Shown in pieces: positions 133 through 59,841 of a stretch of DNA of 64,000 nt. The notes beneath the pieces are model-generated. The model did not search any database. It saw only the letters and a program-made list of their open reading frames with translations, and had not been told where the DNA came from. Source of the stretch: Sporopachydermia quercuum (lineage: Eukaryota); contig BCGN01000001.1 in NCBI GenBank assembly GCA_001599295.1, positions 744,001 to 808,000 on the forward strand. Direction: 5' to 3'. A program made the position numbers and the translations under genes. Positions within the stretch are counted from its first letter, which is position 1, and every line of letters begins with the position of its first letter.

Positions 133-2349
133 CGAAATTACTAACTAGGAAAAATATAAGAAATCTTACATTTCAAGAGAAAAATTGCCAAAGTGATTGA
201 ACGCAATCGAGTACGAATAAATGGCTTAGAAACGACTTTCACAAACATAATTGGAAGGTATTTTGAATTGTAGAGTGAGATCATATTTTGCTTGCATCGG
301 AATGGCTGTGAGTATTGCAATATTAGATAAAAGAAGAAAAAAGATAAAACAGTTTATGGTTGATCAATTGATGAGGAAAGTTCCATATGCAAGAGGGCTA
401 ACCTACCATTTTGGCAAACAAAATCCAGGGCTTGCTAGTATGCTCTAGAAATGGACATAAAATATATGAAGTGGTCAGTATGACGAAAAAACGTAAATAA
501 TAGATCGATAATAGCAGTTAGAACGAAGAGATCTGTTAGTGTATAAATCATATAACACAATGCACTTGCAATCCATTTGATTACTCTCAGATTGTAAGAC
601 ATAACATATTTTATCCTATGACTATCATTGATAGCACGAGAAGGACAGGTTCTAGCCTGTCAGTTATCTGAATGTGAACGGATTTAACGCCGTGATGCTG
701 TTTGAAAGGATGAAGAATCTAATTTACTCGATTCGTCTTATCAGTGAACATGTGGAACGATTTTTGATATTTCAGTGATTGAGTAAATAGATATAGAAAT
801 AATGATGAGAATAGTTTGAATAGTTCTACTAACTAGATCAATAGTGTCAACTAGCAGAAATCGTCAAACTAATTGATCCTCATATAGAATCTATGCCATC
901 AACCATGCCAAACAACAAAGCAAGAACTGGCGATAGCAAACAATTTCTATTCGTCGATGTTTCTGAGAGTATAAGTATTTTGCATAGTTAGCGTAGGAGA
1001 GTTCAATTAATTACAGATTTATAACGTTATACTGTTATTTTAAACATGATTAGTACAATGCTAAAAAGAGGCCGAATCTAATTAAGAACAGAAAGCAGTT
1101 TAACTTTATAATTAACATTGAGATGATTTTTCCTAATGTACATTTGTGCACCAGAAAAACAAAAGCACAACTGTACGTAACAGCTGAAATTATGTGAGTT
1201 TGTCAGTTTCAACTGCGCTCGTTGAATGATATTCATGAATGAACAATCGAATAAAGCTTAATAATAAATGAACCTTATTTTCAACGGTTATTCATTCTTG
1301 TTTCTGAGCTTGAGATTGATTCTTATCTCTGTATTCTCTTTGAGAAGTAAATTAATATCAACAAAAATAGAAAATGCAATAATGTTTGTCAATGTACTTA
1401 GATGATACTTGCCCTAAAGATAATTTGAGCTGTTTAAGATGTTAAGTGAATTCATAATGAACCTTTTAGAACAAGGAACTAAAACCTAGTTTTGAATCTC
1501 GGAGAAGTTAGGAAAAAAGAAAATTTAAACTTTAATATCATGATACTATGTTCAGCAATTTTATAACTAATCGGGTAGTGTTTTATGGAAAATGTTTAGG
1601 TTTCACTCACGCCTAGAACTCCTTTTTAAATTAGATGTTGTTGGGTTTTTCAAGACAGATAGATATAAATAATTCAAAATGTTTCTAACATGTCTTCAGA
1701 AGGCTGTGTTGTTTCCAGAAAAATGCGTATCTGCCCAATAATATCAGGTTGGAGAAAACATAGTCAGAAACTTAAAATAAAGACTCCAAGAAAAATCAAA
1801 ACTTACCGTTTATTACTTGAAATAATGAGGAATGTAAGGCGATATTCCATGCCGGAGGCTTGGAAAAAATATAAGCTAACAGTTTCATTGTATGATCTTC
1901 AAACAATCACTCGATTAAGCTTAACGTTTGTCTTTTTTTCTTTCTTTTTCCTTTTTAGATTTTAAGGTTTTATCTGCTCTTAAGAATCTGAAACGAGGAA
2001 CCTTCCGACCTTTGAAAGTGACATCTATTCAATTCACACTCTAAGTCAGGATGATAAAACGAACAGATCAAAACGTTATCTTGCAATCATTGCTCTTTCT
2101 ATATGAGATAATAAGGAGGGTTAAGGTCACCGTATTAATATCTGACTTTCTAATTATGAATCAGCTAACATATCTATGTTTCAAAACATGCTATAGTAGT
2201 TAGGAATAATGGCACCGGTCTATTTACCTAGACGTGATTGTCAAAACATGGCAGAAGTAAATCTCTGTTTTCAACCTTAATTCAGTATATTTTTCAGTAG
2301 GTCTCAGAATAAAGTTAGAATAATTTGCCATAACTAGTCAAACTCAATT

Positions 2350-2660
2350 GTTTACGTAACTCATGACTCAACCAAGACTCCCTTCCAGATGTAATCCCTC
2401 TTGTGATCAATCGACCAATTTCTTGAGCTTTGAGCTTCGAACTAGAAATGCCAAAAATTCGATCGCTCTTGGTAAGAAGTGCGGTAATTTTTGAGTATTG
2501 AACTGCAGCAAAAACATCAGTATATGAGCTGATAGAGCATATCTTCCTTTAGAAGTAACTCTCCCGAGATAGTCAACTTTATCCTTTTCATATTGCAAAC
2601 GATGCAATATATTCTTGAAGGCACTCCTCACTCTTTCGCACTTTCGCACTCTTGTTTATT
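2350..2660 (-). mobile_element. Possible Ty1/copia-type Gag remnant, heavily frameshifted
   Basis: Stitching minus-strand frames gives SEECLQEYIASF / EKDKVDYLG / ELLLKEDMLYQLI / QYSKITALLT...SKLKAQE. This resembles the copia Gag (UBN2-like) pattern S..EY...F..L.D.L...G..(EED).....Y..I......KL.A.E. Confidence 0.3.
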
Positions 2661-5479
2661 TGATAGCTTTCATTTGATTGCACCAGTAACTGCCCTAGTT
2701 TCTTTTTTTCTTTTTTTTTTTTTTGAATAAGACACAGTTGAATTTAACAAATCTCTATCGTTCTTAAACACCAACGGAGAAAACTCAACGGCTTCTTTTG
2801 CCAACCCTGGAATTTGTAAAACCTTATGTTCTATACTATCGTCCTCGGGTTACTGATAATACGTATGCTTTACCAACCCATCAACAATCCTGCGTTATAT
2901 GACATACATGTCTGCGCAATAAGAAACGATGTTGGAGGGAGAAAAAGGTAGAAAGCTAACCAGGAAGAACGAATTATCACATCTGACAAGTGGAACTTTT
3001 CAAAAATCGGGCTTCTGAACTTCCCAAAACGTGTATGATCCTTTGTTATTATAGCACTCTTTGAATATGTATTTCCAGAACGACTCCGCAGTTAAATTTC
3101 ACATCTTTCTATCATAACTAGTTAGTTGAAGTATACGTTCTACATGTGTTGTGAATTAAATGTACTTCTCAGACGTATCTCAGATAATGAATGTTTCTCA
3201 AACTATGTACATACCAAATCTAGTATGCAATATCGATCATACAATTTATATTTTTTTCTTCCGCTTCCTATCTGATTTTACTGATCATTCATTAGTTAGA
3301 TTAACAGCGAGACCAGTTGAAACTGAGTATTGCGTAATGAATTGGATTATCACCTGTCCATTACACTTTTTTTACTCATCGAATCACTGACCAAAAAAAA
3401 ACCTAACTAGCCATACAGGTATTTCCTGTATAAAATTTTTTCGTGAATTAATACTGTAGATAAATTTCCAAAAATATCTTTTAAAGCTACTACTGGCTAA
3501 ATTACTGTGGAGTGACATAAAATCCGAATTCGCTAATCCTATATAGGCTAAAATAATATCAGTCACATACAATCAGTTGGAAGCCAAAAGGCGCACCACA
3601 CCTTCCAGATTTTATATTTTCAAAGCTTGACGTACAGCTCTGAATCTCAGGTCTTTTCTCTTATGTTGTTGAAAGAAAAATATTATTTCTCGTAGAAGCA
3701 AATATGAGGACTAAATTCTCTGAATTGTCATCGTACGAATGAATATACTTGAAAGAAACGATCAATAAGGGCCAAAGTGATCTTAGTGAGATGCCACTTA
3801 AATTTCCATTAACCATAAAAGTTTCGATTTCACATTCTTGGTGTCAAATAAATGAGATGGAAGAGGTTCAGGAAAAAATAACTTACTGAGCTATAACACT
3901 CCTATTAGCACAATTACAGTGCTTCCTTTCAATTGCAAATAATAATCTTTTATATGAGGAGATTTGTCTGTTGTAAGTCTAAGTAATTAACTTTTGGAAT
4001 AAGAAAATGGGTTACTCAATTAAGATGGAAAACTTAACGTTTCACTGGGGTGCATATTACTTTTATATGAAAGAATTGTTCTTAGTATCAATAACTATCT
4101 TTCGACCTATATTCAGCTATCGGCTATTTCATATTATCACCCTGTGTGAGCTTCAAAAATCTGATCATATTCAGATTGAAAATATGGATGCCTCTAATTT
4201 ACACTATCTTCTTCGCATGTCGTTCATTGCTTCTGTTCCCTTTTCATAATGTAAATAATCGTTTCTATTTCTATTTTTATATTTACATTATAGTTAAGGT
4301 TCTCCTACCCATTCTAGAAAAGCAAAATACAGGGTTTGGCTTATTCTAGGATCAATTTGAATCCATTATTGTTGAGTTGTAGAACTTCCATGATAGTCGA
4401 CCGGAAGTATCTAATACGAATTACTATAATGAGACACATACATGTTTCACCATTTTAGGTGAACCAAGTAACATTACAAAAAGATTGTGGCTCAGCCATA
4501 ATTGAAAGAACAACGACTCTAATTTGTTTGGTTGAAGGAGACGAGAGAACAAAAAGTACTATGTAGAAGACATTAAATCGAATGTTTAGGGAAAACCGAT
4601 CTTGATAACTTTTACTATCATGAAAAAGATCAAATATTTCAAAAGTGAGTGAATCGACCATTTCATTATTAATTAATGCTCTATCCTGAATTTGCCGATA
4701 TTTAGCATTAAAGTTTCCACTCTGATCTATACATTAAAATGGAAGTATCAGAACTTTGAAGGTGTATCACAAAACTTATTAACTTAGAGTATACATAGAT
4801 TCATACGTTGAGTATCCTATTCGTTTGAACTACTTAGTTAACTCGTTTCTTTGGTCCTGGGGTTTAATTCTTAGTAGTGATGATAATGTGGATCCCTACC
4901 GACTAGTTCGTAAGATAAGAATTGATTGGCCATAGTGTTCACGTACAATTAGTCACAAAGATTGATCACTAGGAGATGGAATGATTGCCCTTTTAAGTAT
5001 TTAAATTTTGATTGGATTTTAGTTCGGAAACCAATTTCCCTTCTCTTAGTGTTATCATTAAAGCTCCATTTTCTCAAACAACTGATTATGTAGTTTTATT
5101 GTCCTATTCGGAACTGTAAACCCATTTAAGCCTATGTTCAAGCCCCGATCCAAAGAGAGGAACTGAAATATTCTGGGAAGGATGTCATCTAAATGAAACC
5201 CTGTAAGTAATCATATTTGAAAGCCAAGAGTGTATTAATCAAATATTACCAAAAAATTCAACCTCGAATTTACCTTCCGCTTAATAAGGTTTAAAAGGAC
5301 ATCTGAAACAAAAAGTTAACTTGAATAGTGTAAGTATATTTTGTTAACTATTCAATGATGTACCTAGCAGTGCATAAAGTTCGTCACCACTCATTTCTTG
5401 ACAGCCGTCAACTTAATCATTGATGCTTAAGCAACGTTGTAACTGACAAGAAAAGTCGTTCTTTTTCAAAATAAATGAT

Positions 5480-9600: not shown

Positions 9601-10252
9601 AAAATCAAAATTAATGCAGTATTCAAAGAGTAGCAAATTTACAACATAATTATGTATATAAGAGTTCATTTAGTCCATTCTTAAAATCTCATATCTTACT
9701 GCCCATACTGTTGTCGTTTATACCGAAGTCTTCTCATATGAAACTTGTAACATCTGTACAAACTATGTGTTGTGTAAAGTTTATATATTTTAGTAACTTT
9801 ATTTTGATATAAATAAATCACTTGGAAGGACCATTCGTCTAATGCCAGTTCAAAACCTTATAAAGATTTTGGTAACTACAAATAACAAATAATCTTACAT
9901 AACATATACATATATAACGTAGGTTTGCTGCTCCCTCTTTAATTAATGCAATCGTTCCTGAATTTTCTTTCTGGCTGGTTAAAGCAAATTTGATTATCTT
10001 CCACTGTTGAAGCATTGTTCCAACATTGATTATCGGCTTTATTATAGGAGCGAAAGGTTTTCGATTTAGATAGCGGTTGATTTTATTCAGGTTTCTATCG
10101 TTTCAAAAACAGCCTTAGGAACAAATAATGATAAGGCATCTTTAAACTGACCTTCCATTGAAGAGCTAGATAATCAAAAAAAAAGGAAAAAAATTAGACC
10201 TAGAATTAGGCCAAAGAATACGCTGGTCGTTTCCTTACAATTATATTTTACA

Positions 10253-11119
10253 ATGTCAGTGGCTGATGGAAATTTGAATTCCAATCGTCCGATAACCCTT
10301 CCGCCACCAATTCCAAATCACCCAACCGATACAGCGAATCCCTATCCATCTACCTTTCACATTTTACCATATACTATATCCCAGACACACATTCCGAGTT
10401 CTCATAATGCGAATTCAAGCCAATTTAGAGGTCTCGATAAAACAGTTCCAAGTGCATTGAAACTACCGTCAATTACTGATTTGTTCAAAGATCTAGACTC
10501 AAATACTCTACCCTTACCCCTGCCATCACCTCCGGCACTTTCAGGTTCGCATGCTCATCATGCTCATCATATTCATCCGCATTCCCATCAATACATACAT
10601 TCGCAGTCTCAGAATATGACGCGTCCGGGGGTATCAGGATATCCAATTAACTCCAACTCTCCACAATCAGTCATATTACAAGCTCCTACCTCAATATCTG
10701 GAGGGATAGAGTCGTCACATGGAACGCCTAATCCACTGTCGCCAGTAATGGCGACTATACAGTCAGAAAACATACGGCAATCACAGGACTTTTCACAGCA
10801 GATTAGGCCGCCAACACCACGTACCTCACCGCCTTCAGTTGTATCAGCACCTTTATCGTCATCTTCATCATCTTCATCACAACATAGGATCAAGAAACGA
10901 CGGTCGAATCTACCGAAATCAGTAACATCTATATTGATGATATGGCTTTCAGAACATTTAAATCATCCATATCCATCAGAAACAGAGAAAACGGAATTAC
11001 TCATGAAAACGGGTCTCACGGGCTGTCAATTATCAAATTGGTTTATTAATGCTCGAAGAAGAAAAATATCTGGTCTTTCTTCAGGCAAATTAGTACTTAA
11101 ACAGTCGAAACAGAAGTAA
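10253..11119 (+). CDS. CUP9: TALE-class homeodomain transcription factor, Cup9/Tos8 family
   Basis: C-terminal KKRRSNLPK..ILMIWLSEHLNHPYPSETEK..LSNWFINARRRKI after a low-complexity P/S/H-rich N-terminus. Confidence 0.88.
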   Translation: MSVADGNLNSNRPITLPPPIPNHPTDTANPYPSTFHILPYTISQTHIPSSHNANSSQFRGLDKTVPSALKLPSITDLFKDLDSNTLPLPLPSPPALSGSHAHHAHHIHPHSHQYIHSQSQNMTRPGVSGYPINSNSPQSVILQAPTSISGGIESSHGTPNPLSPVMATIQSENIRQSQDFSQQIRPPTPRTSPPSVVSAPLSSSSSSSSQHRIKKRRSNLPKSVTSILMIWLSEHLNHPYPSETEKTELLMKTGLTGCQLSNWFINARRRKISGLSSGKLVLKQSKQK

Positions 11120-11789
11120 TTTCAAGAGTATATAATTATTCATTCTTCAAGGTTTTGTTACATTCGCTTCTCAATAAAAAATATCATACTCAGCTAATTT
11201 CAATTCACTTTTTCTTTATTCTCATGCATGTTCTTCCCTTATTATTCTGGTTCATTGACGACACACACATAAAAAAATGTTGTACCACCTCCTTCTAGGC
11301 CAATTTTGACCTATTAATTGTAAACTGTAAAGATTTAATTATTATTCTTGTAATAAGTATCCCCGTTATCCGTACATTTTTGTTTAGATATTAAACCAGA
11401 TTTCAGTGTTTCTTTAAGTTTCTGACAGTAGTGTAATATTCATGCATGTTTATGCATAAAGCAATGAATCTTGGTAATTCAGCCATTAGGCGCTTGGTGT
11501 ACCATTTTATGTGTCTAAAGGAGTAATTATGACAATGGTCGTTAGACATAAACCTGAAACAACAAGACGTATTCCGTATAAACGTTCTTTGCGTAAACTT
11601 TATACGCATTAGGTATATGCAGAGAAAAAGAGAGAATATACGTAACAGTTGATTAATTGAATAATTCAATGCACAAGGGAAAGTTTTCCGAATTTGGTGT
11701 ATCAGTGGCTCAACTCTAAAAGGTCTGGCAGCAAACACTAGTTGAGAAATCTTTTTTCTTCTTTGGTAAATTATAAAATCAACGCTGTA

Positions 11790-12590
11790 TATATCGAATG
11801 ATGAGTTAGTTGATCAATTGAATTTCGTCTATCTTTTTATAGCATATCCATCATCAATATAGTCTTTCATAATATACGGCGTCGCTGGTATAAGTTGGTG
11901 AAATATAGATATTGGTTTTCACTATCTTTTAGGATCCGCTCGATTACCATTTTTAAACTTATATTATCAGTCATTCTAAGAATTTACCTGTTTTCTACCC
12001 AAGTTTTATAAAGGACGGGTAACTACTACTAGTTTATCAGGTCTCAATTCAGGATATCTGTCTATTAGCAATAACGCGGCTCTTCAATGAGAGTTATTAG
12101 GCCATAAACAAGCCCATAAATACAGGGTTCCTATTATTATTATATAGTCCAATACATCAAAATGTGTATTGAATTCATATTGGAAGGTACTTGTTAAATT
12201 TGAAGTATACATAATATCTGAGGAGTCTGAAATTTTCGGGCGGTACCTCATTGGATAACGCAGTATTTCAACTTGATCCTTCCCAGACCTAGGATGGTAG
12301 TCGAGAGGTCAATAGGAGTTTTGTAGGATGATTTTCTAATTTTACCAAGGGAAACTACTACGATCCTGAGATCATAAGAGATATCACAATCGGAGCATGT
12401 GCTTTGCCAACATCATGATGAACTGTGGTGATGACAATAGATTTGGTATGGGTGAATGCGAATATCAAGAAGAAAAGGAATATAATGACGAAGGAGGTGA
12501 AAGAGATGAATTCGATTGATTTGAGGAAGGAGAAGAAGTAAGCGAATTCCACAAATCGATATCAATTAAAGAGATAGAAATGAAGCATTG
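11790..12590 (+). pseudogene. Harbinger-type DDE transposase pseudogene (DDE_Tnp_4-like)
   Basis: Colinear motifs: LVDQLNFVYLFIAYPSSI*SFIIYGVA (HTH region, ~11805-11885); HQNV (~12155); GRYLIG (12238-12255); FNLILPRPRMVVERSIGVL*DDFLIL (12267-12344, cf. FN..HS..R..VER.FG.LK.RF.IL); YDPEIIRDITIGACAL-[1-nt deletion]-NIMM (cf. ACC.LHN); then an acidic tail. Confidence 0.75.
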
Positions 12591-12997
12591 AAACAATGGA
12601 GAAATATTGCTTCTGATCTCTGGGAAAGATATAATAATAGAGTGAAATGAACTAAATAGCTATATTAACAAAAGATTATAAGCCAAATGATCGAAAAGGA
12701 GTAGGGCTAACTAATTAAGTTTGATTCTGTATGCACATTTTATTCAGATTAATGATCATTGAAATGGAGTTGGTATCTTTGTTCTTTAATCTCTCTTATT
12801 CAGCTCTTAGCGAGCTCTCAGCTGGGTTTTTACTGGGAAGATACTTGGCAAACTCTTCGGAAAATAACCGACAGCAAGCTCTCATTCTGTGGAATTGCAT
12901 CACATAGCTTTCCCTTGAGAATAGTTGAAGCTATCAATTTTGAGGGCTTTTTCAAAGATATCTTTTATACTCAGGCATCACCTCTTCGCCCAATGTC

Positions 12998-13627
12998 CTA
13001 CCTTTTAGTTTTAGTTTTCTTTTTCTCTTTCTTTTTCTTGAGGTTTCTTCGATGCTTACAGTTATCAGATTGGTTCACATCGGCATTCCTAGATATTGCT
13101 TTCTGTTGTGGAGCTCGGGTAGAAGGTGATACATATTTATTATCGTCAGATAAGGCACTACTTACTGATGTATCATCATAACCTAATTCGAGAAGATCAC
13201 CAGAAGAAGAGGAAGGAGAAGTTGTGGAGTAGGAGTTACCAGAAGAGCAATCTACAACAGCGCTTGCCGCGGCGAACAGAATATCCAAAGTTTCAAAGTT
13301 TGGGAGTCCCTTGTTTCTGAATTTAAGAAACGAGTGCCCTTCTTTTTCGTATTCCTCCCAACTTTCTCGAGAAGGAAGCAGCGCATAATTCTAAGTCCCA
13401 TCCCACTCGAGAAGTGTTGCGCGTCTTGTTGAGTACATTATGCTTTCGTTTTAAACTGATAATATTTACTCAATTGAATGGGTGTTACGTTTCGGAATGT
13501 ATAAGAAATTGAACTTCTCAACGATTAGGGCCATTCTTTCAGCCTTCATACTAACTGATCCGTTCTTTTGCTTCCTCTCAATACGCAATATTATCATAAG
13601 CTCAGAAGCTTTTGTAGAAAAAAGCAT
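12998..13627 (-). pseudogene. Myb/SANT-like DNA-binding protein pseudogene (Harbinger accessory ORF type)
   Basis: Across frameshifts: FSTKASELMIILRIE..SMKAERMALIVEKFN / VTPIQLSK / LKRKHNVLNKTRNTSRVGWDLE / SWEEYEKEGHSFLKFRNKGLPNFETLDILF, then an S-rich linker and K-rich NLS-like stretch. Matches the SG.GWD...W.EY.......KFR.K..P....L..LF pattern. Confidence 0.75.
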
Positions 13628-13985
13628 TATTCATCCTTTGTCTTTGTTAAGACGATGTGAAGTATTTAGACTTTTAGATCATTCAATGATCATCAAGTCC
13701 TATACATCCGTAAAACAGTTGTATTATAGCATTGCAGATCAAAGTATAGCAAGAAATAGAGATAATTCTTATTGATTTATGAGAATAGGTCCTTTGGTGT
13801 TTATTCTTATGTATGGCAAACCTAAATAAATACAGTTTATTTCATTCTTTATTTTAATAAAATAATCAATGATAAATGTAAAAAGTTCACCGAACAGGTA
13901 AATTAAATCCTAGAATGACTGAAAATAATAAAATATGCAGTTAAAAATGGCAATTGAACGGACACTTAGTCCTAAAATTAAGCAA

Positions 13986-16057
13986 TTAAGTACTGTAATC
14001 AAAATGATCTCCCACAGAACTGATATCACGTATTCTTGAAATAAGATCATAGTTGACTTTTTTAGAAACTTTAGAGTCATGATGATAATCAGGATGGTTT
14101 AAAACAAATCGTCTAATCCAAGTAGCAGCAGTAGGTATATCGCCCTTCGCTCTTTTAGAGATGAAATCAATATATTCTGTTAACTTGCTCAATTCAGCTT
14201 CTGAAGCAGTTTCGCCATATTCCTCTTTCACGAACTGCTTAACAAGTGGGAAAATCTTACCATTGATAATCTCATCAATAGTGTATTCCTTTACCCTATT
14301 GTTTTCAGTTCCTCCTTGTATATCTTCTCTGAACCAAAACTTTCTCGATAATAATGAATCTCGCTTATGACCTTGTTCCATATTCTCTTCACTCTTTGAA
14401 ATTGGAATATATAAATCTATATTATATTTTGCAATCATTCGGAAGATTAAAGTGATGACCAACGCATATGCTGCATTCTCATAATCAGTCAATTGTATAT
14501 CCATACTTCTGAATTCCACTCTCCAGCCAATTGAAGTTTGACCAGGAGGAGGTGGTTTGAATCTCATAGTTTGCCAGTTCGTAGATTGGATATTTTCAAA
14601 ATGATCAGCTGATACAGTATTGTCTTGATGTAATAGCTCACCAAAAACAACAATTGGATCCCGAATGAATAAATGACCAAAATGTTTTGCCAATAGATCA
14701 TCAAATCCGCGAGTATTCTTTAGTTCCTCGTAAATTTCTTCGTTGTAGACAATATCCACATCATTATATTCATCTTTGAAAAATACCTTATCTTTGTCAC
14801 CTTCAAGATATGAAGAATCTCCCAAATAATTATCAATTGAATCATACCTAGATTTTCGTATTCTATACTTCTTACCATTTTCCTCTCCTTCAGTTGATCC
14901 AACATCAGGCAATGGCTTCAATCCTAGTTCTTCTGGTGTTCTATCATCAACACTAGCAGCAATGACGTTCCATCTTACATCCCAATCTGATAAATATCCT
15001 CTAAAAATGGGGGTTGTAGCACTCAATGACAGAAATATAGGTGCCAGAACAGAGGCAGTGTCATAAAGATATCTCGCCTGATGAACGTTTTTACTTTGAT
15101 ATGTGACTTGAAGACAAGAGCATCCCATTCCAAATCCCATACTATCCATATAAATATGATCTAACTTGGCGGCTCCATCTCTGGCATTTGCGTCTTCGGG
15201 ATAAATGTTTCTATCCCATGATATGGTCTCATCTTTGAACGGTGATGGTGTTTTCTCATCATGAAATATAGGTACATTTATTTGGACTTTGTTGCCTCTT
15301 CTTTGTCTGATATTGGCTGTTAATGTTGGAAATCGTGCATGCTCATTAATCACTTCATCAGGAAGGAAAAAGCTCCTGGAAACAGGTCCATTGGGCTTGA
15401 AATAAGGATATGTAAACTGCCCTGGAGCACCAAGAAGAGGATAAGATGTGATGGTTAAAGTGACAAATGTGATTGATGGATTCTCTTTATCATTAGGCAA
15501 ATATTTTAATGACACTTCTCTTCTTACTTTCATGTTCTTCTCTACATACAATAAATCAGTGATAGTACCAGAGTATGGTCTTGCTGGCGTAGCTTCTAAC
15601 ATAAACCTGCCGTACTCAGGATGGTAAGAAACATCATACTTCTTAGCCAATTGTTCCTCATCATTAGCTATCTTGTCTAAAACTTGTGTAGATATTAACG
15701 CCAAGAAAACTTGGTCCTCTTTCACACTAGCAATATTACCATTAACTATTGTATCCGTTTCTGATTCTGATTCTGATTCTTCGTTGATGTTATCGTTTAA
15801 CTCAGAATTCTTCTCGACAAAAGCAACCATAATATACTCAATTTCGTCTCCCCATAAGAAAGGATCATTGTCACGATTTGAATGCTGGTTGAAAATATTG
15901 ATTAGTTGCTTTATGCCTTCTTTACGAACATGATTCGAATGCTTCTTTGCTTCATCCCAAGGTAATGGGGTTCCCAATGATCTAATTTCACTGTTAGAAA
16001 GAATAATGCACGAAATGGTTAAATTGATCTTATCAGTCTTACATACAATAATCCCAT
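13986..16057 (-). CDS. GSH1: Glutamate-cysteine ligase (gamma-glutamylcysteine synthetase)
   Basis: Exon 1 16057-16047; intron 16046-15982 (GTATGT..TTCTAAC..TAG) restores MGLLSLGTPL. Motifs WGDEIEY, HPEYGRFMLEATP, MGFGMGCSCLQVT, GWRVEFR. Confidence 0.97.
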
Positions 16058-16369
16058 TATGTTCTCTGAAGAACAATTAATAGATGAATAATGATAATAA
16101 TTACAACCTTAGTGGAAACGAAAAAATGGCTTAATTCTTTCCTAATGGTTCACTTGAGCTTCGGACTTTAACTAGAAAGTGTATTAGTTAGTTAAGTGAA
16201 GAGGGCACCTCAAATCGTATGCAAAGATTGCCGGAAGGATCAAATTCAAGTCAAGTCGTAGGTTAAAGCATTTTCCTGCTATCGTCCTCTGAAGAAAATC
16301 TTCAAATGGAGCTGTCATATTCAATGTAAAAAAAAAAATTAAAAGAAAAAAAAAACGACCAAAGGACCG

Positions 16370-43740: not shown

Positions 43741-44307
43741 AATTGCAGTCTTTTTCTACTTGATTGATATTAGTATGTTAGAATGTGTATTTTAGAGCTG
43801 TGTCTCTATGTACTTCTCTCTGTTGAGATGCTAAATCTGATATGCCAGGGAATTCCAAGATTTCTTTAGTTTTAATCTGAGATTACTCAACACTTCATGC
43901 TCCGTTGGAAACCCCTTACTATCTATCACCTTTGGCATCCAAGAATTTTCGCTGTCACTTATTTGATCAATTAATCATGCTATCAATTGGTATTATCATC
44001 ATTCCCAGCCATATTTATTCAGTAAAGCCAATGTTCCACTAAGTACACTCCCAAAAATGAAGTTGCACATTGTTTGTTTGGGAATATTTCCGGAACTTTT
44101 TGATTGAACTATCGGCTGTTTAGATTCTATACGCGACAGGAAACTCGTTAAAAAAAAAAACCAGAGAGATCGTTGATCTATGTACCTGCCTCAAATGTAT
44201 CATTTCTTTAAAAAGAAAACCTCATGGTAAATTATCTATAGATGAAATAGTTTACTGTACAAGCAGGTGAATGTTTCTTCTGATTCTACTATAGAAATAT
44301 ATTGAAT

Positions 44308-45660
44308 ATGTCTCAGATTTCGGATGTGGTGGCTGTAGAGCTGCTAGGCTCTTCACCTTTCAAGATCAATCGGTCGATTAGACGCGGATCAATTCTTGAT
44401 GACACTAAAGCGAAGACTTGGGACGACCTACTTAGCTCTTTACACACATTAGCTGTAGAACCAGTATCCAAATCTCATATAACTAGGGAAAGAAACGAAT
44501 TGAGAAAGCTCTTAGAAACTGAGACTAAGCTGAACAGTGGTCTATTAGGATCACGAGTGGATGAGGTCTCACAGAACTCTAGTTATCTTATTTTATTGAT
44601 AGAAAAGGCTTTGATAGAGCTAAATGAACACGGTTTGAAAGGAAATATACTTCTGGATGAAGTTCTAGAAGCATTAAGAGATAAATACAGAGAAAATGAG
44701 ACTGATCCCGATATTTTGTTGAACATATTACAACACGTACAAGGATTATTATCTTTAGTTTATGCCAGCTATTTGAAAACAGTGAAAGAACAAGAGACTG
44801 TGAAGATCACTATTGATAATCATTTAGTAGAGACAGGAAATGGGTTCTATGATTCAGAACAATCCATAATCGAGAATCTGAATCTCATTCTTTATGAGTC
44901 CAGGAAAAAGTCAAAATTAAGAAGAACCATGACCACAACGGGGACACTGAGATCTCTGAAACATCTTCAAGATACCTTGGAGAAAACACAAGATGAAGTG
45001 AATAATAAACAAATGATTGAAACAGATTTGAAAGCTACAATTGATCAGTTAAAGTATCAGCATTTACTTTTGCAGAGACAGTATGAGGAAGAACGACTAA
45101 GTTATAAGGAAGTATTGGCAGAGTCTCAACAATCATGTGAATCACTGAAAAAGGAACTAGATGCTGTAACAAATGTGTTGGATAGTATGACACGTCAAGC
45201 AGTAGAGTCGGAGAATGATCGGAATGAATATAAGATTAAGTACGATCATTTGTATGACCAATATAATGAACTAAAAAGCCAGTTTGAAATAAGTAAAGTC
45301 AATTCCTTGGGATTATCACCTTCATTAGCCCCAAGTTCTACTCTTGGTTCAGGCGAAAACTATATTATCACACCTCAACCCAAACCTTTTGCAGCAGATG
45401 CCTCACCAGTCAGATCATTTTCTCCTGTGAATAGAGACCTATTAAAATCAGCCTTGGCAGCCTCGCCTGGAACGGGATCAAGTAATACTGTATCCTCTTC
45501 TATTCTGAGGCATGAATTCAAAAAGTATGTGTTAGAATTACAGAACAATTTTAAGGAACAATTAGCAAAGGAGAAAGCTGAACGAGACAGGATAGAAGAT
45601 TTGTTGAGTAGATATAGGAATGACGCTCTACATAATGATGGACTAGAGAACTTGGGCTAA
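44308..45660 (+). CDS. Coiled-coil protein, Pea2/Uds1-like C-terminus (polarisome candidate)
   Basis: Long heptad region; C-terminal SSSILRHEFKK..EQLAKEKAERDRIE motif. Confidence 0.65.
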   Translation: MSQISDVVAVELLGSSPFKINRSIRRGSILDDTKAKTWDDLLSSLHTLAVEPVSKSHITRERNELRKLLETETKLNSGLLGSRVDEVSQNSSYLILLIEKALIELNEHGLKGNILLDEVLEALRDKYRENETDPDILLNILQHVQGLLSLVYASYLKTVKEQETVKITIDNHLVETGNGFYDSEQSIIENLNLILYESRKKSKLRRTMTTTGTLRSLKHLQDTLEKTQDEVNNKQMIETDLKATIDQLKYQHLLLQRQYEEERLSYKEVLAESQQSCESLKKELDAVTNVLDSMTRQAVESENDRNEYKIKYDHLYDQYNELKSQFEISKVNSLGLSPSLAPSSTLGSGENYIITPQPKPFAADASPVRSFSPVNRDLLKSALAASPGTGSSNTVSSSILRHEFKKYVLELQNNFKEQLAKEKAERDRIEDLLSRYRNDALHNDGLENLG

Positions 45661-58059: not shown

Positions 58060-59151
58060 TCACTTATGTGATAACCGTTTGCCAATACCTTTTTCCTTGT
58101 CTTTATTCTCATCATCATCATCCGCTATTGCATAATTATCAATCTTGCTATCCCGCGATCTGAACATATCTCTTACATTGCTAATACTGGTATTAGAGCT
58201 ACTGCTAGATTTATAATCCTCGTCTCTCAAACTAGCATATGTTCTGTCTCCTAAATGTGCAATGGCGTTTCTGCTAGACGCACTATCACTCGAAACTGTA
58301 CTCATTGAATTTGACCTAAGTAAACCGTCCTGAAGATAATCAGTTGAGAGGATCTCTGCAATGGAATTTCCATTGGTATGTGAATTTGAATGTGAATATG
58401 ATCGTATATGTGAACCGGAAGACTTGTGTGCGTGTAGAAGTTCGGGTCTTTGTTTTTTGTCAAGTGATTGCGCTTCCTTTTTTTCTTCAATCAGCATTTG
58501 AGAAGCCAACAATCCCAATGTATCGAGCATGAGATTAGGAGAAACCGGAGCCGTATTCTTCTGAGACCTTCTTAGTGAAACCTGTTTCTGCAATAAAGCT
58601 AATTGCGCATCTTTTTCCGCATTCTCTGCAATATAACTTTTCAGTCTCGTTTGAAGGTTTAATATCTTGTCAATATACGTTTCATATAACTCAGCATTGG
58701 ATATCAAATCATTAACGTTCTTGAGTCTTTCTACTTCACGCTTATTTATGGTATTCTCAACAGCATACCTTCGTTGAACTGACTCAGCATCTATAGTTTT
58801 CAATTGGGACTCAAGTTGTAACTGTGCGATTTCTGAGGTTGAAGCTTTCAACTCAGTTTGTACATTTTCTAGTAGTTCCAGCTTCCGTAGTAATAGAAAC
58901 TGAAGATCTTCTTTTGATTGGATGTCTATATCTTGTTTCAAATCCTCTTGACGTGCCAGTAATCGTTTGTCTATCTCGAATGTTCGTTCCGCGGCCTTCC
59001 CAATTATCTCGTGCCTACCATTTTCCAGTACTGTATCCTCATCAGGCATGAAGCTTTTTTGAGAATCTTCAGGCGTAACAAGTCCATTGTCAATTCGCCT
59101 GTGAATCTCTTCTGATGATTCGTTGTTCTTCTTGAGAGCCATTTGAGCCAT
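58060..59151 (-). CDS. Hypothetical coiled-coil protein
   Basis: 363-aa ORF with a heptad N-terminal half and S-rich tail. ACGCGT at 59160-59165 and ACGCGA at 59184-59189 lie just upstream. Confidence 0.75.
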   Translation of the reverse strand: MAQMALKKNNESSEEIHRRIDNGLVTPEDSQKSFMPDEDTVLENGRHEIIGKAAERTFEIDKRLLARQEDLKQDIDIQSKEDLQFLLLRKLELLENVQTELKASTSEIAQLQLESQLKTIDAESVQRRYAVENTINKREVERLKNVNDLISNAELYETYIDKILNLQTRLKSYIAENAEKDAQLALLQKQVSLRRSQKNTAPVSPNLMLDTLGLLASQMLIEEKKEAQSLDKKQRPELLHAHKSSGSHIRSYSHSNSHTNGNSIAEILSTDYLQDGLLRSNSMSTVSSDSASSRNAIAHLGDRTYASLRDEDYKSSSSSNTSISNVRDMFRSRDSKIDNYAIADDDDENKDKEKGIGKRLSHK

Positions 59152-59841
59152 AATGTGAAACGCGTCCGGTTGTATAATAAATGACGCGACACTTTGCTCT
59201 CAAAGACTCCTGAAAAACCCCATTACAACAGTATCATAAAACCCAGAATATTTTTCTTAATATCTATTAGTAATACGCTATATATCAGCATATATTCACA
59301 CCACACTTGTTATTCATATTGAACGGGTACTCTTCTGTCACGTCGTTTGAGTTTTCATGTTTATGATAACTAGACCATTTGCACTCACGCCTAAGACAGC
59401 AGATTAATGCATTGTTTCTACCAGTAAACAACTGCATGTTTCTGCAAGAGTAAAATTAGAAGTTATATAATATTACGTTATCATTTAATGGCTTTGATGT
59501 ACCACTTGATGTAACACAAACAGAAATCAAATGTATATAAAAGATGAAGAAAAAAAGAATGGGAAAGGAATGTCATGCTACTATACATCAATCACATCCA
59601 TGAGCAGATTGAATAAGAAAAATCATACATATTTGTTAGAGAAGATTTTTGACAAGCAAATAATAGCTCCTTAAGAAACATCAAGTCTTGTCTGGAGTCA
59701 ATGAGCTGAAATGGGTAAAATACTGAATACCCTACGTAAATGTGCAATACATTAATGATTATCCTCCATTATGAGTATATTTTTATATATGGGATACACT
59801 TAAAACGTAGCACCTCAGAAAATGTGAAAGATATGATACGC

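Follow-up and report, generated by a model that had tools for sequence, protein, structure and literature searches.

A probable PIF/Harbinger-type transposon relic between a CUP9-like gene and GSH1 in Sporopachydermia quercuum

In the genome of the budding yeast Sporopachydermia quercuum, a CUP9-like homeobox gene and the glutamate-cysteine ligase gene GSH1 are separated by an unusually long gap of about 2.9 kb that is free of open reading frames (ORFs). What occupies this gap? It lies within a stretch of 64,000 nucleotides (nt) of contig BCGN01000001.1 (assembly GCA_001599295.1, positions 744,001 to 808,000 of the forward strand), which we hereafter call the window, numbering positions from its first letter. 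An initial annotation, made from the letters and their ORFs, had read the gap as a fossil two-gene PIF/Harbinger transposon at positions 11600 to 13700. Our analysis places an element at about 11932 to 13972 (2041 bp), with imperfect terminal inverted repeats (TIRs) of 58 to 80 nt at both edges and, within these repeats, two converging pseudogenes: a transposase remnant on the plus strand and a Myb/SANT-like gene on the minus strand (Table 1). With a probability of about 0.88, this stretch is a dead, non-autonomous copy of a cut-and-paste DNA transposon of the PIF/Harbinger type (PHIS superfamily), whose presence would explain the long ORF-free gap. By sequence, the transposase remnant is homologous to the DDE_Tnp_4/Harbinger catalytic domain, the second ORF is Myb/SANT-like, and TIRs surround both.

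Two pseudogenes and their inverted repeats

The transposase remnant is recognized by an ungapped block of 26 residues (12267 to 12344), which, aligned to a profile built from 120 Harbinger transposases, scores 22.3 bits, with the next best place in the window at 10.9 bits. None of 200 dinucleotide shuffles of the whole window reached this score (window-wide maximum: mean, 10.0; standard deviation, 2.8; largest, 21.6), and two other profile weightings gave the same outcome. In the profile alignment, the glutamate of VVER falls where the DDE domain has its catalytic E. The 14 profile columns that lie outside the motif used to fish for comparator loci score 6.3 bits, which only 4e-4 of all window positions equal or exceed. 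When a 48-residue piece of the remnant was aligned by hhalign with 67 Harbinger transposases, it matched on the correct columns (probability score, 83.9; P = 7.7e-6).

Downstream of this block, the remnant continues in other frames. Frameshift-aware profile alignment extends over 12267 to 12438 with two frame changes at 24.4 bits, a score reached by 0 of 300 shuffles of the region (largest, 22.9), and including the acidic tail raises the score to 30.3 bits. All-frame translation of the plus strand yields NFRAVPHWITQYFNLILPRPRMVVERSIGVL, a stop, and DDFLILPRE at 12231 to 12374, FSNFTKGNYYDPEIIRDITIGACALPTS in the second frame at 12332 to 12415, and an acidic stretch in the third frame at 12370 to 12516. 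In a plain hmmsearch of the window's ORF fragments with the 120-sequence profile, the candidate ranked only fourth (E = 1.1).

The strings quoted in the initial annotation are all present: on the plus strand GRYLIG (12238 to 12255), FNLILPRPRMVVERSIGVL followed by a stop and DDFLIL (12267 to 12344), GACAL (12389 to 12403), and an acidic run (12440 to 12540), and on the minus strand SRVGWD (about 13395 to 13410) and WEEYEKEGHSFLKFRNKGLPNFETLDILF (13274 to 13360). As transposase motifs, the FN..R.VVER block is upheld by the shuffles, while GACAL alone is matched no better than by chance (local P = 0.19 to 0.30), and the second-frame stretch alone is likewise nonsignificant. GRYLIG is unsupported as a transposase motif: it stands some 8 codons before FN, as opposed to some 40 in the family, and its DNA overlaps other proposed readings. 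The helix-turn-helix (HTH) region that had been placed upstream gives no signal, profile columns 1 to 280 scoring 15.6 bits, which 92 of 300 shuffles reach. The string LDYHF (11939 to 11953) was tried as the first catalytic motif and rejected as a chance match inside the left repeat.

Only 275 bp separate the left repeat from the FN block, and therefore about 280 transposase codons are missing, among them those for the DNA-binding region and for the first and second catalytic aspartates, such that the last 100 or so codons of an internally deleted copy remain. The absent HTH and triad residues fit such a deleted copy and do not count against its ancestry. The description of the locus as a two-gene fossil needs correcting: both genes are broken as claimed, but the copy is not a full two-gene one, with about two-thirds of its transposase gene deleted.

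The converging gene on the minus strand was assessed with a Myb profile built from 20 natural pieces of partner ORFs that includes their C-terminal extension (consensus of the extension, SGLGWDDTTKLIEASDEVWDEYVQAKPKYEKFRNKKIDHYDELAIIVGK). In frameshift-aware alignment, 13600 to 13277 outscores every other place in the window, with 37.5 bits (next place, 21.4), an alignment that needs two frame changes plus stops; across 60 whole-window shuffles, the mean was 19.9, the standard deviation 1.7, and the largest score 25.2, for a Gumbel P of about 1e-6. The gene is disrupted by two frameshifts, near 13470 and 13375, in addition to stops. All-frame translation of the minus strand reads SLKRKHNVLNKTRNTSRVGWDLEL at 13326 to 13469 and, at 13001 to 13390, SRESWEEYEKEGHSFLKFRNKGLPNFETLDILF and then the Ser-rich and Lys-rich tails. 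Standard tools point the same way, though less strongly. Among 1903 ORF fragments of the window searched by hmmsearch, the piece at 13001 to 13390 ranks first (E = 0.045) and the adjoining piece at 13326 to 13469 third. Three successive Myb fragments were placed by hhalign on template positions 32 to 70, 85 to 108, and 114 to 150, with P values of 0.26, 0.012, and 4.6e-4. Searching the ESM Atlas with the 130-residue ORF returned unnamed plant clusters as top matches and a PF12776 cluster at rank 29 (score, 0.82), a ranking that serves as a lead and not as evidence. Together with the transposase block, this convergent Myb-like gene bears out the gene pair that the initial annotation had recognized as PIF/Harbinger.

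The ends of the element were found in a repeat search, which returned three inverted pairs, colinear and situated at the element's ends. Local alignment of 11935 to 11992 with 13962 to 13893 scores 51, which 0 of 300 shuffles of 11121 to 13985 reach (mean, 26.1; standard deviation, 2.8; largest, 44). With a 7-nt indel, the symmetry of the ends reaches GGA at 11932 and TCC at 13972. Within the window, there is no other copy of the element or of its repeats.

Table 1. Features of the element and its neighbors (window coordinates)
Feature	Position	Strand	Remarks
Left TIR	11932 to 11992		Significant core 11935 to 11992; outermost GGA tentative
Right TIR	13893 to 13972		Significant core 13893 to 13962
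TTA beside left end, candidate left target-site duplication	11929 to 11931		Sequence reading
TAA beside right end, candidate right target-site duplication	13973 to 13975		Sequence reading
Transposase remnant, whole	12267 to 12564	+	Last third only; catalytic-E block FN..R.VVER..GVL
Transposase remnant, first frame	12267 to 12331	+	FNLILPRPRMVVERSIGVL, then TAG; 22.3 bits versus profile columns 281 to 306
Transposase remnant, second frame (one-base shift)	12332 to 12406	+	FSNFTKGNYYDPEIIRDITIGACAL; frameshift-aware alignment; copy 2 open across the junction
Transposase remnant, third frame	12407 to 12564	+	ANIMMNCGDD, then an acidic tail like the one at the C terminus of the family profile; low complexity, support weak
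Myb/SANT-like (Myb_DNA-bind_3-type) pseudogene	13001 to 13627	-	Domain 13618 to 13277, then Ser-rich and Lys-rich tails
Left neighbor, TALE homeobox gene (CUP9/TOS8-like), outside the element	10151 to 11119	+	Pfam Homeobox_KN, 74.4 bits, E = 6.4e-21
Right neighbor, glutamate-cysteine ligase gene (GSH1)	13986 to 16076	-	Pfam GCS, 499.5 bits; PDB 3ig5 (a glutamate-cysteine ligase) matched by the product, 537.6 bits

Further copies and comparator loci

Contigs of two assemblies of the same organism were aligned on 11400 to 14500 at 80% likeness; contigs of two other organisms, aligned likewise, covered none of it, GSH1 included, a blank that carries little meaning. In both assemblies of the organism itself, a second copy (copy 2) on another contig matches the window in five colinear pieces (12284 to 12407, 12735 to 12760, 12880 to 12923, 13060 to 13115, and 13193 to 13366), identity being approximately 80% where coding remnants are compared and lower elsewhere, and it is disrupted at other positions. 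Where the window has TAG, copy 2 shows no stop but AAT and an additional base (after 12326), and because it reads GVLNRQFSLFNKENNYGPDIT openly across this junction, in a single frame, the comparison shows that one base was lost from the window between 12324 and 12332. Its letters upstream, outside the aligned piece, read KKEYFNLVHF, where the profile consensus is KKELFNLRHS; this decapeptide scores 16.1 bits, versus 0.8 for the window's own copy, and none of the 127,942 10-mers of the window reach 16.1. The Myb gene of copy 2 reads PFLDFKNKGLPNN before a frame shift to LFDILFEAARANR, a break at a place where the window is unbroken. That the two copies decayed independently from a coding ancestor is the strongest single argument for the view that the gene pair is genuine and belongs to a repeated element.

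Between the first two shared pieces (12407 to 12735), copy 2 has 876 letters and the window 327; the difference reflects either a loss of about 550 bp from the window or an insertion into copy 2. A third contig matches 13912 to 13942 (31 nt of the right TIR) except at 1 position, and its sequence to the left and right of the match is unrelated; this piece may stem from another copy or from a miniature derivative. Because a second colinear copy and this TIR piece exist, on contigs separate from that of the window, the family must once have multiplied, or been duplicated, in this lineage.

The comparators came from metagenome contigs, which we scanned with a degenerate back-translation of R.V[VIM]ER.[FI]G[VIM]LK, yielding at least 119 loci. 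The motif is specific to the family: all 6 of the ORFs from these loci that were submitted to Pfam carry DDE_Tnp_4, at 63 to 119 bits. In the window itself, the degenerate motif has no match at up to 1 mismatch because the window differs from it at two positions (the ATA codon and the TAG). To obtain the transposase profile, a protein search was seeded from the locus that is most window-like in this motif among the matches listed (L038, contig Ga0307478_10043967); the matches listed for this seed include 120 relatives (P0002 to P0121), all of which carry PF13359.

Comparators for the Myb-like gene were ORFs adjoining Harbinger transposases. There were 301 such other ORFs of at least 90 residues, and among the 57 scanned by Pfam, PF12776 occurs in 4 (L035, L037, and L065 at 50 to 69 bits and L038 weakly) and Myb_DNA-bind_5 in L029. 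A local Myb profile matched 18 ORF pieces in 16 of the 119 loci listed. In two plant gene models (P0080 and P0107), the transposase and Myb_DNA-bind_3 domains are both present, fused.

The metagenome locus L038 holds an apparently intact Harbinger element (207 to 3136) whose two convergent ORFs are 456 and 516 residues long. Its transposase (207 to 1574, plus strand) and partner ORF (1589 to 3136, minus strand) have the same tail-to-tail layout as the genes of the window, and it is the closest of the matches listed in the catalytic-E block, where 15 of 26 residues are identical. The partner ORF also shares the W..Y...FR...LP..Y..L..IL extension and a Lys-rich stretch, which follow a weak match to Myb_DNA-bind_3 (PF12776) of 20.5 bits, below the cutoff of 23.6, and this case shows that the curated model underdetects this branch of partner proteins. 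Unlike those of the window, both ORFs of L038 are intact and longer, and outside the motifs the similarity is too low for BLAST. The assignment to Harbinger is strengthened because the TIRs bound the gene pair, because the second colinear copy fits the profile better where that of the window is decayed, and because the genes of L038 converge in like manner.

Plant PIF/Pong-like, ALP1-like, and HARBI1-like sequences (P0057, P0060, P0075, P0080, P0107, and others) share with the window the FN..HSSLRNV[VI]ER.FGVLK.[RK][FW].IL block and a Myb_DNA-bind_3 partner but differ in coming from plants, where many are host genes or belong to active families. The best matches to the block (13 to 15 of 26 residues identical) are to metagenome, fungal, and plant sequences alike, among the matches listed. 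With some 60 alignable residues, a horizontal origin cannot be judged, and we make no statement on kinship or transfer between the element and the plant genes.

According to Han et al. (2015; PMC4482050), PIF/Harbinger elements make a TWA duplication and carry two ORFs (DDE plus HTH; Myb/SANT), their TIRs start with A or G and are under 60 bp in about 93% of cases, their autonomous elements average about 4124 bp, and the other PHIS groups are distinguished by their target duplications. By that description, the element in the window resembles PIF/Harbinger in its DDE_Tnp_4-type transposase, its Myb/SANT-like second ORF, its TIRs starting with G, its AT-rich target, and its TWA-like flanks. It differs in its length (2041 bp versus about 4124 bp), in the loss of about 280 transposase codons, in having both genes broken, in arms (58 to 80 nt) at the long end of the range, and in flanking triplets that are not identical.

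Alternative readings

Several results weigh against a Harbinger relic, and some of them speak for the possibility that chance alone produced the motifs in decayed, AT-rich DNA between genes. The curated libraries and large databases returned blanks. Pfam found 0 families in 12 fragments and in stop-as-X read-throughs of four frames at E values up to 10; a match to Pfam profiles was the test put forward in the initial annotation, a test that the locus, read strictly, fails. The thresholds for DDE_Tnp_4 (PF13359) and Plant_tran (PF04827) were reached neither in the 12 fragments nor in three read-through frames, with 16 to 49 residues per frame, and PF12776 likewise gave no match. A word-indexed protein search produced 253 candidates for the Myb read-through and 1 for the 48-residue transposase piece, none with an E value of 10 or less; phmmer against PDB gave 0 relatives; exhaustive phmmer of the Myb read-through gave a single match (P0001), on the Ser-rich tail only; and BLASTP of that read-through against six comparators gave no match in the domain. 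Scored over the whole window with frame changes allowed, the transposase does not rise above noise (30.3 bits versus 28.1 for a coiled-coil ORF), and a further alignment of this kind gave 23.9 versus 22.8, with 24.9 versus 27.4 for the other strand. For the 26-residue block, one of the 200 shuffles came near, at 21.6 versus 22.3 bits, and with an iterated Myb profile lacking the C-terminal extension, the Myb site is not the top place (16.0 versus 22.8). Of the catalytic domain, only the E-bearing block was seen, and neither the complete DDE triad nor the N-terminal HTH was found. In addition, the transposase profile was seeded from a locus chosen for its likeness to the window, which somewhat favors the window, and copy 2 was read from a difference table in which letters less than about 32 nt from the piece ends are unlisted and the ends and neighbors of the copy are unseen.

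Weak look-alikes do occur in this DNA. An unrelated ORF of 379 residues without a Pfam family (58063 to 59199, minus strand) contains ENGRHEIIGKAAERTFEIDKR, a weak tblastn mimic of the block with an hhalign probability score of 1.7 (P = 0.03), and was dismissed as chance; another weak tblastn match, in the ORF at 44284 to 45657, belongs to a DUF7801 protein and was dismissed as noise. We read the Pfam blank as non-decisive because the fragments are short and because the best-kept part of the Myb gene lies beyond the end of PF12776, which, when mapped on P0080 and P0107, stops before it. Against chance stand four independent signals within 2 kb, namely, the transposase block, the Myb profile, the inverted ends, and the better-fitting second copy, and we find an origin by chance scarcely credible.

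Instead of a transposon copy, the pair could be a pseudogenized, domesticated host gene pair derived from Harbinger, in the manner of HARBI1/NAIF1 or ALP1/ALP2. Domesticated Harbinger pairs are known in animals and plants, and several of the nearest relatives among the matches listed carry the names ALP1-like or HARBI1 in their source records. However, TIRs bound the pair, the 5' deletion of the transposase lies right behind the left repeat, both genes are colinear in a second copy elsewhere, and a TIR piece sits at a third locus, all of which make domestication very improbable. Less remote, and still unlikely, is the proposal that the two copies go back to a segmental or whole-genome duplication of a region in which the insertion was already present, in which case they would be no proof of transposition. 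In its favor, no more than two colinear copies came to light, which are about 80% identical over the coding remnants and less so elsewhere, the ends of copy 2 are out of view, and yeasts with a whole-genome duplication in their past have TOS8 as a duplicate of CUP9. Yet the flanks of the element (11400 to 11931 and 13973 to 14500, the latter including GSH1 coding sequence) are covered at 80% or more by no contig except the window's own, and the third contig has unrelated flanks around its TIR piece.

Membership in a PHIS group other than PIF/Harbinger proper, such as NuwaII with its DDE gene and Myb/SANT gene, turns on the flanking triplets. TTA and TAA are both TWA but not identical, matching at 2 of 3 bases as a direct repeat; only the 2-bp TA forms a perfect flanking repeat, and the exact ends are uncertain given the 7-nt indel in the arms. 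The PHIS groups are defined by their target-site duplications, and two-ORF elements carrying a Myb gene are described in NuwaI and NuwaII too (PMC4482050). On the other side, each triplet is individually TWA, and a single change in an old relic accounts for the mismatch; the flanks are unlike the targets of other PHIS groups (C|TNA|G, CWG, ANT, and AAA|TTT); the TIR begins with G, as is usual in PIF/Harbinger according to the same source; and the closest relatives of the block among the matches listed are PF13359 proteins, which their sources name ALP1-like or HARBI1. A group outside PIF/Harbinger proper is therefore improbable, and assignment to PIF/Harbinger remains our preferred reading.

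Setting and significance

The genes on either side, which the initial annotation had called CUP9 and GSH1, agree with those names at the level checked, that of the family (Homeobox_KN and GCS), and the name CUP9 is taken over from that annotation. The roughly 810 bp between the stop codon of the CUP9-like gene and the left repeat (11120 to 11931) contain no recognizable gene; a stop-to-stop frame of 136 codons runs on the minus strand at 11403 to 11813. At the other side, the stop codon of GSH1 (13986 to 13988) is only 13 bp from the right end of the element. Given this distance, the right repeat and subterminal DNA of the transposon most likely contain the GSH1 3' untranslated region (UTR) along with the gene's termination signals. 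The G+C content of the element (0.354) equals that of the window (0.354), and this match with its surroundings suggests an old resident.

From what is known of the family, the living ancestor would have carried two genes between its terminal inverted repeats, one for a DDE transposase that excised the element and inserted it into an AT-rich target and the other for a Myb/SANT-like DNA-binding protein that brought the transposase to the element's ends. The loss of about 280 codons may be an internal deletion of the sort left by gap repair after excision. The copy has probably been immobile for a long time and shows no sign of being active today.

DNA transposons are scarce in budding-yeast genomes, and to our knowledge, those known belong to superfamilies other than PIF/Harbinger. 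In the papers and search listings consulted, we found no Harbinger family described in budding yeasts; a survey of fungi (PMC5751038) describes PIF/Harbinger as ubiquitous in them. The element is a real, ordinary relic that is new only as a further member of a known superfamily. A wider claim is tentative, and we hold it to be possible rather than probable: that this is the first recognized PIF/Harbinger family in a budding-yeast lineage, with nothing but relics left, at three or more loci, and a right end that supplies GSH1, an essential gene of glutathione synthesis, with its 3' UTR and termination signals and, if intact relatives should exist only outside yeasts, that it also arrived horizontally.

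The finding has little practical consequence, the element being dead. Fossils like this one escape ORF tracks and Pfam scans, as the broken genes of this element do, and can be recovered by combining a frameshift-aware profile with paralogous copies. Once dated, the relic family would extend the record of mobile elements in this lineage by one superfamily.

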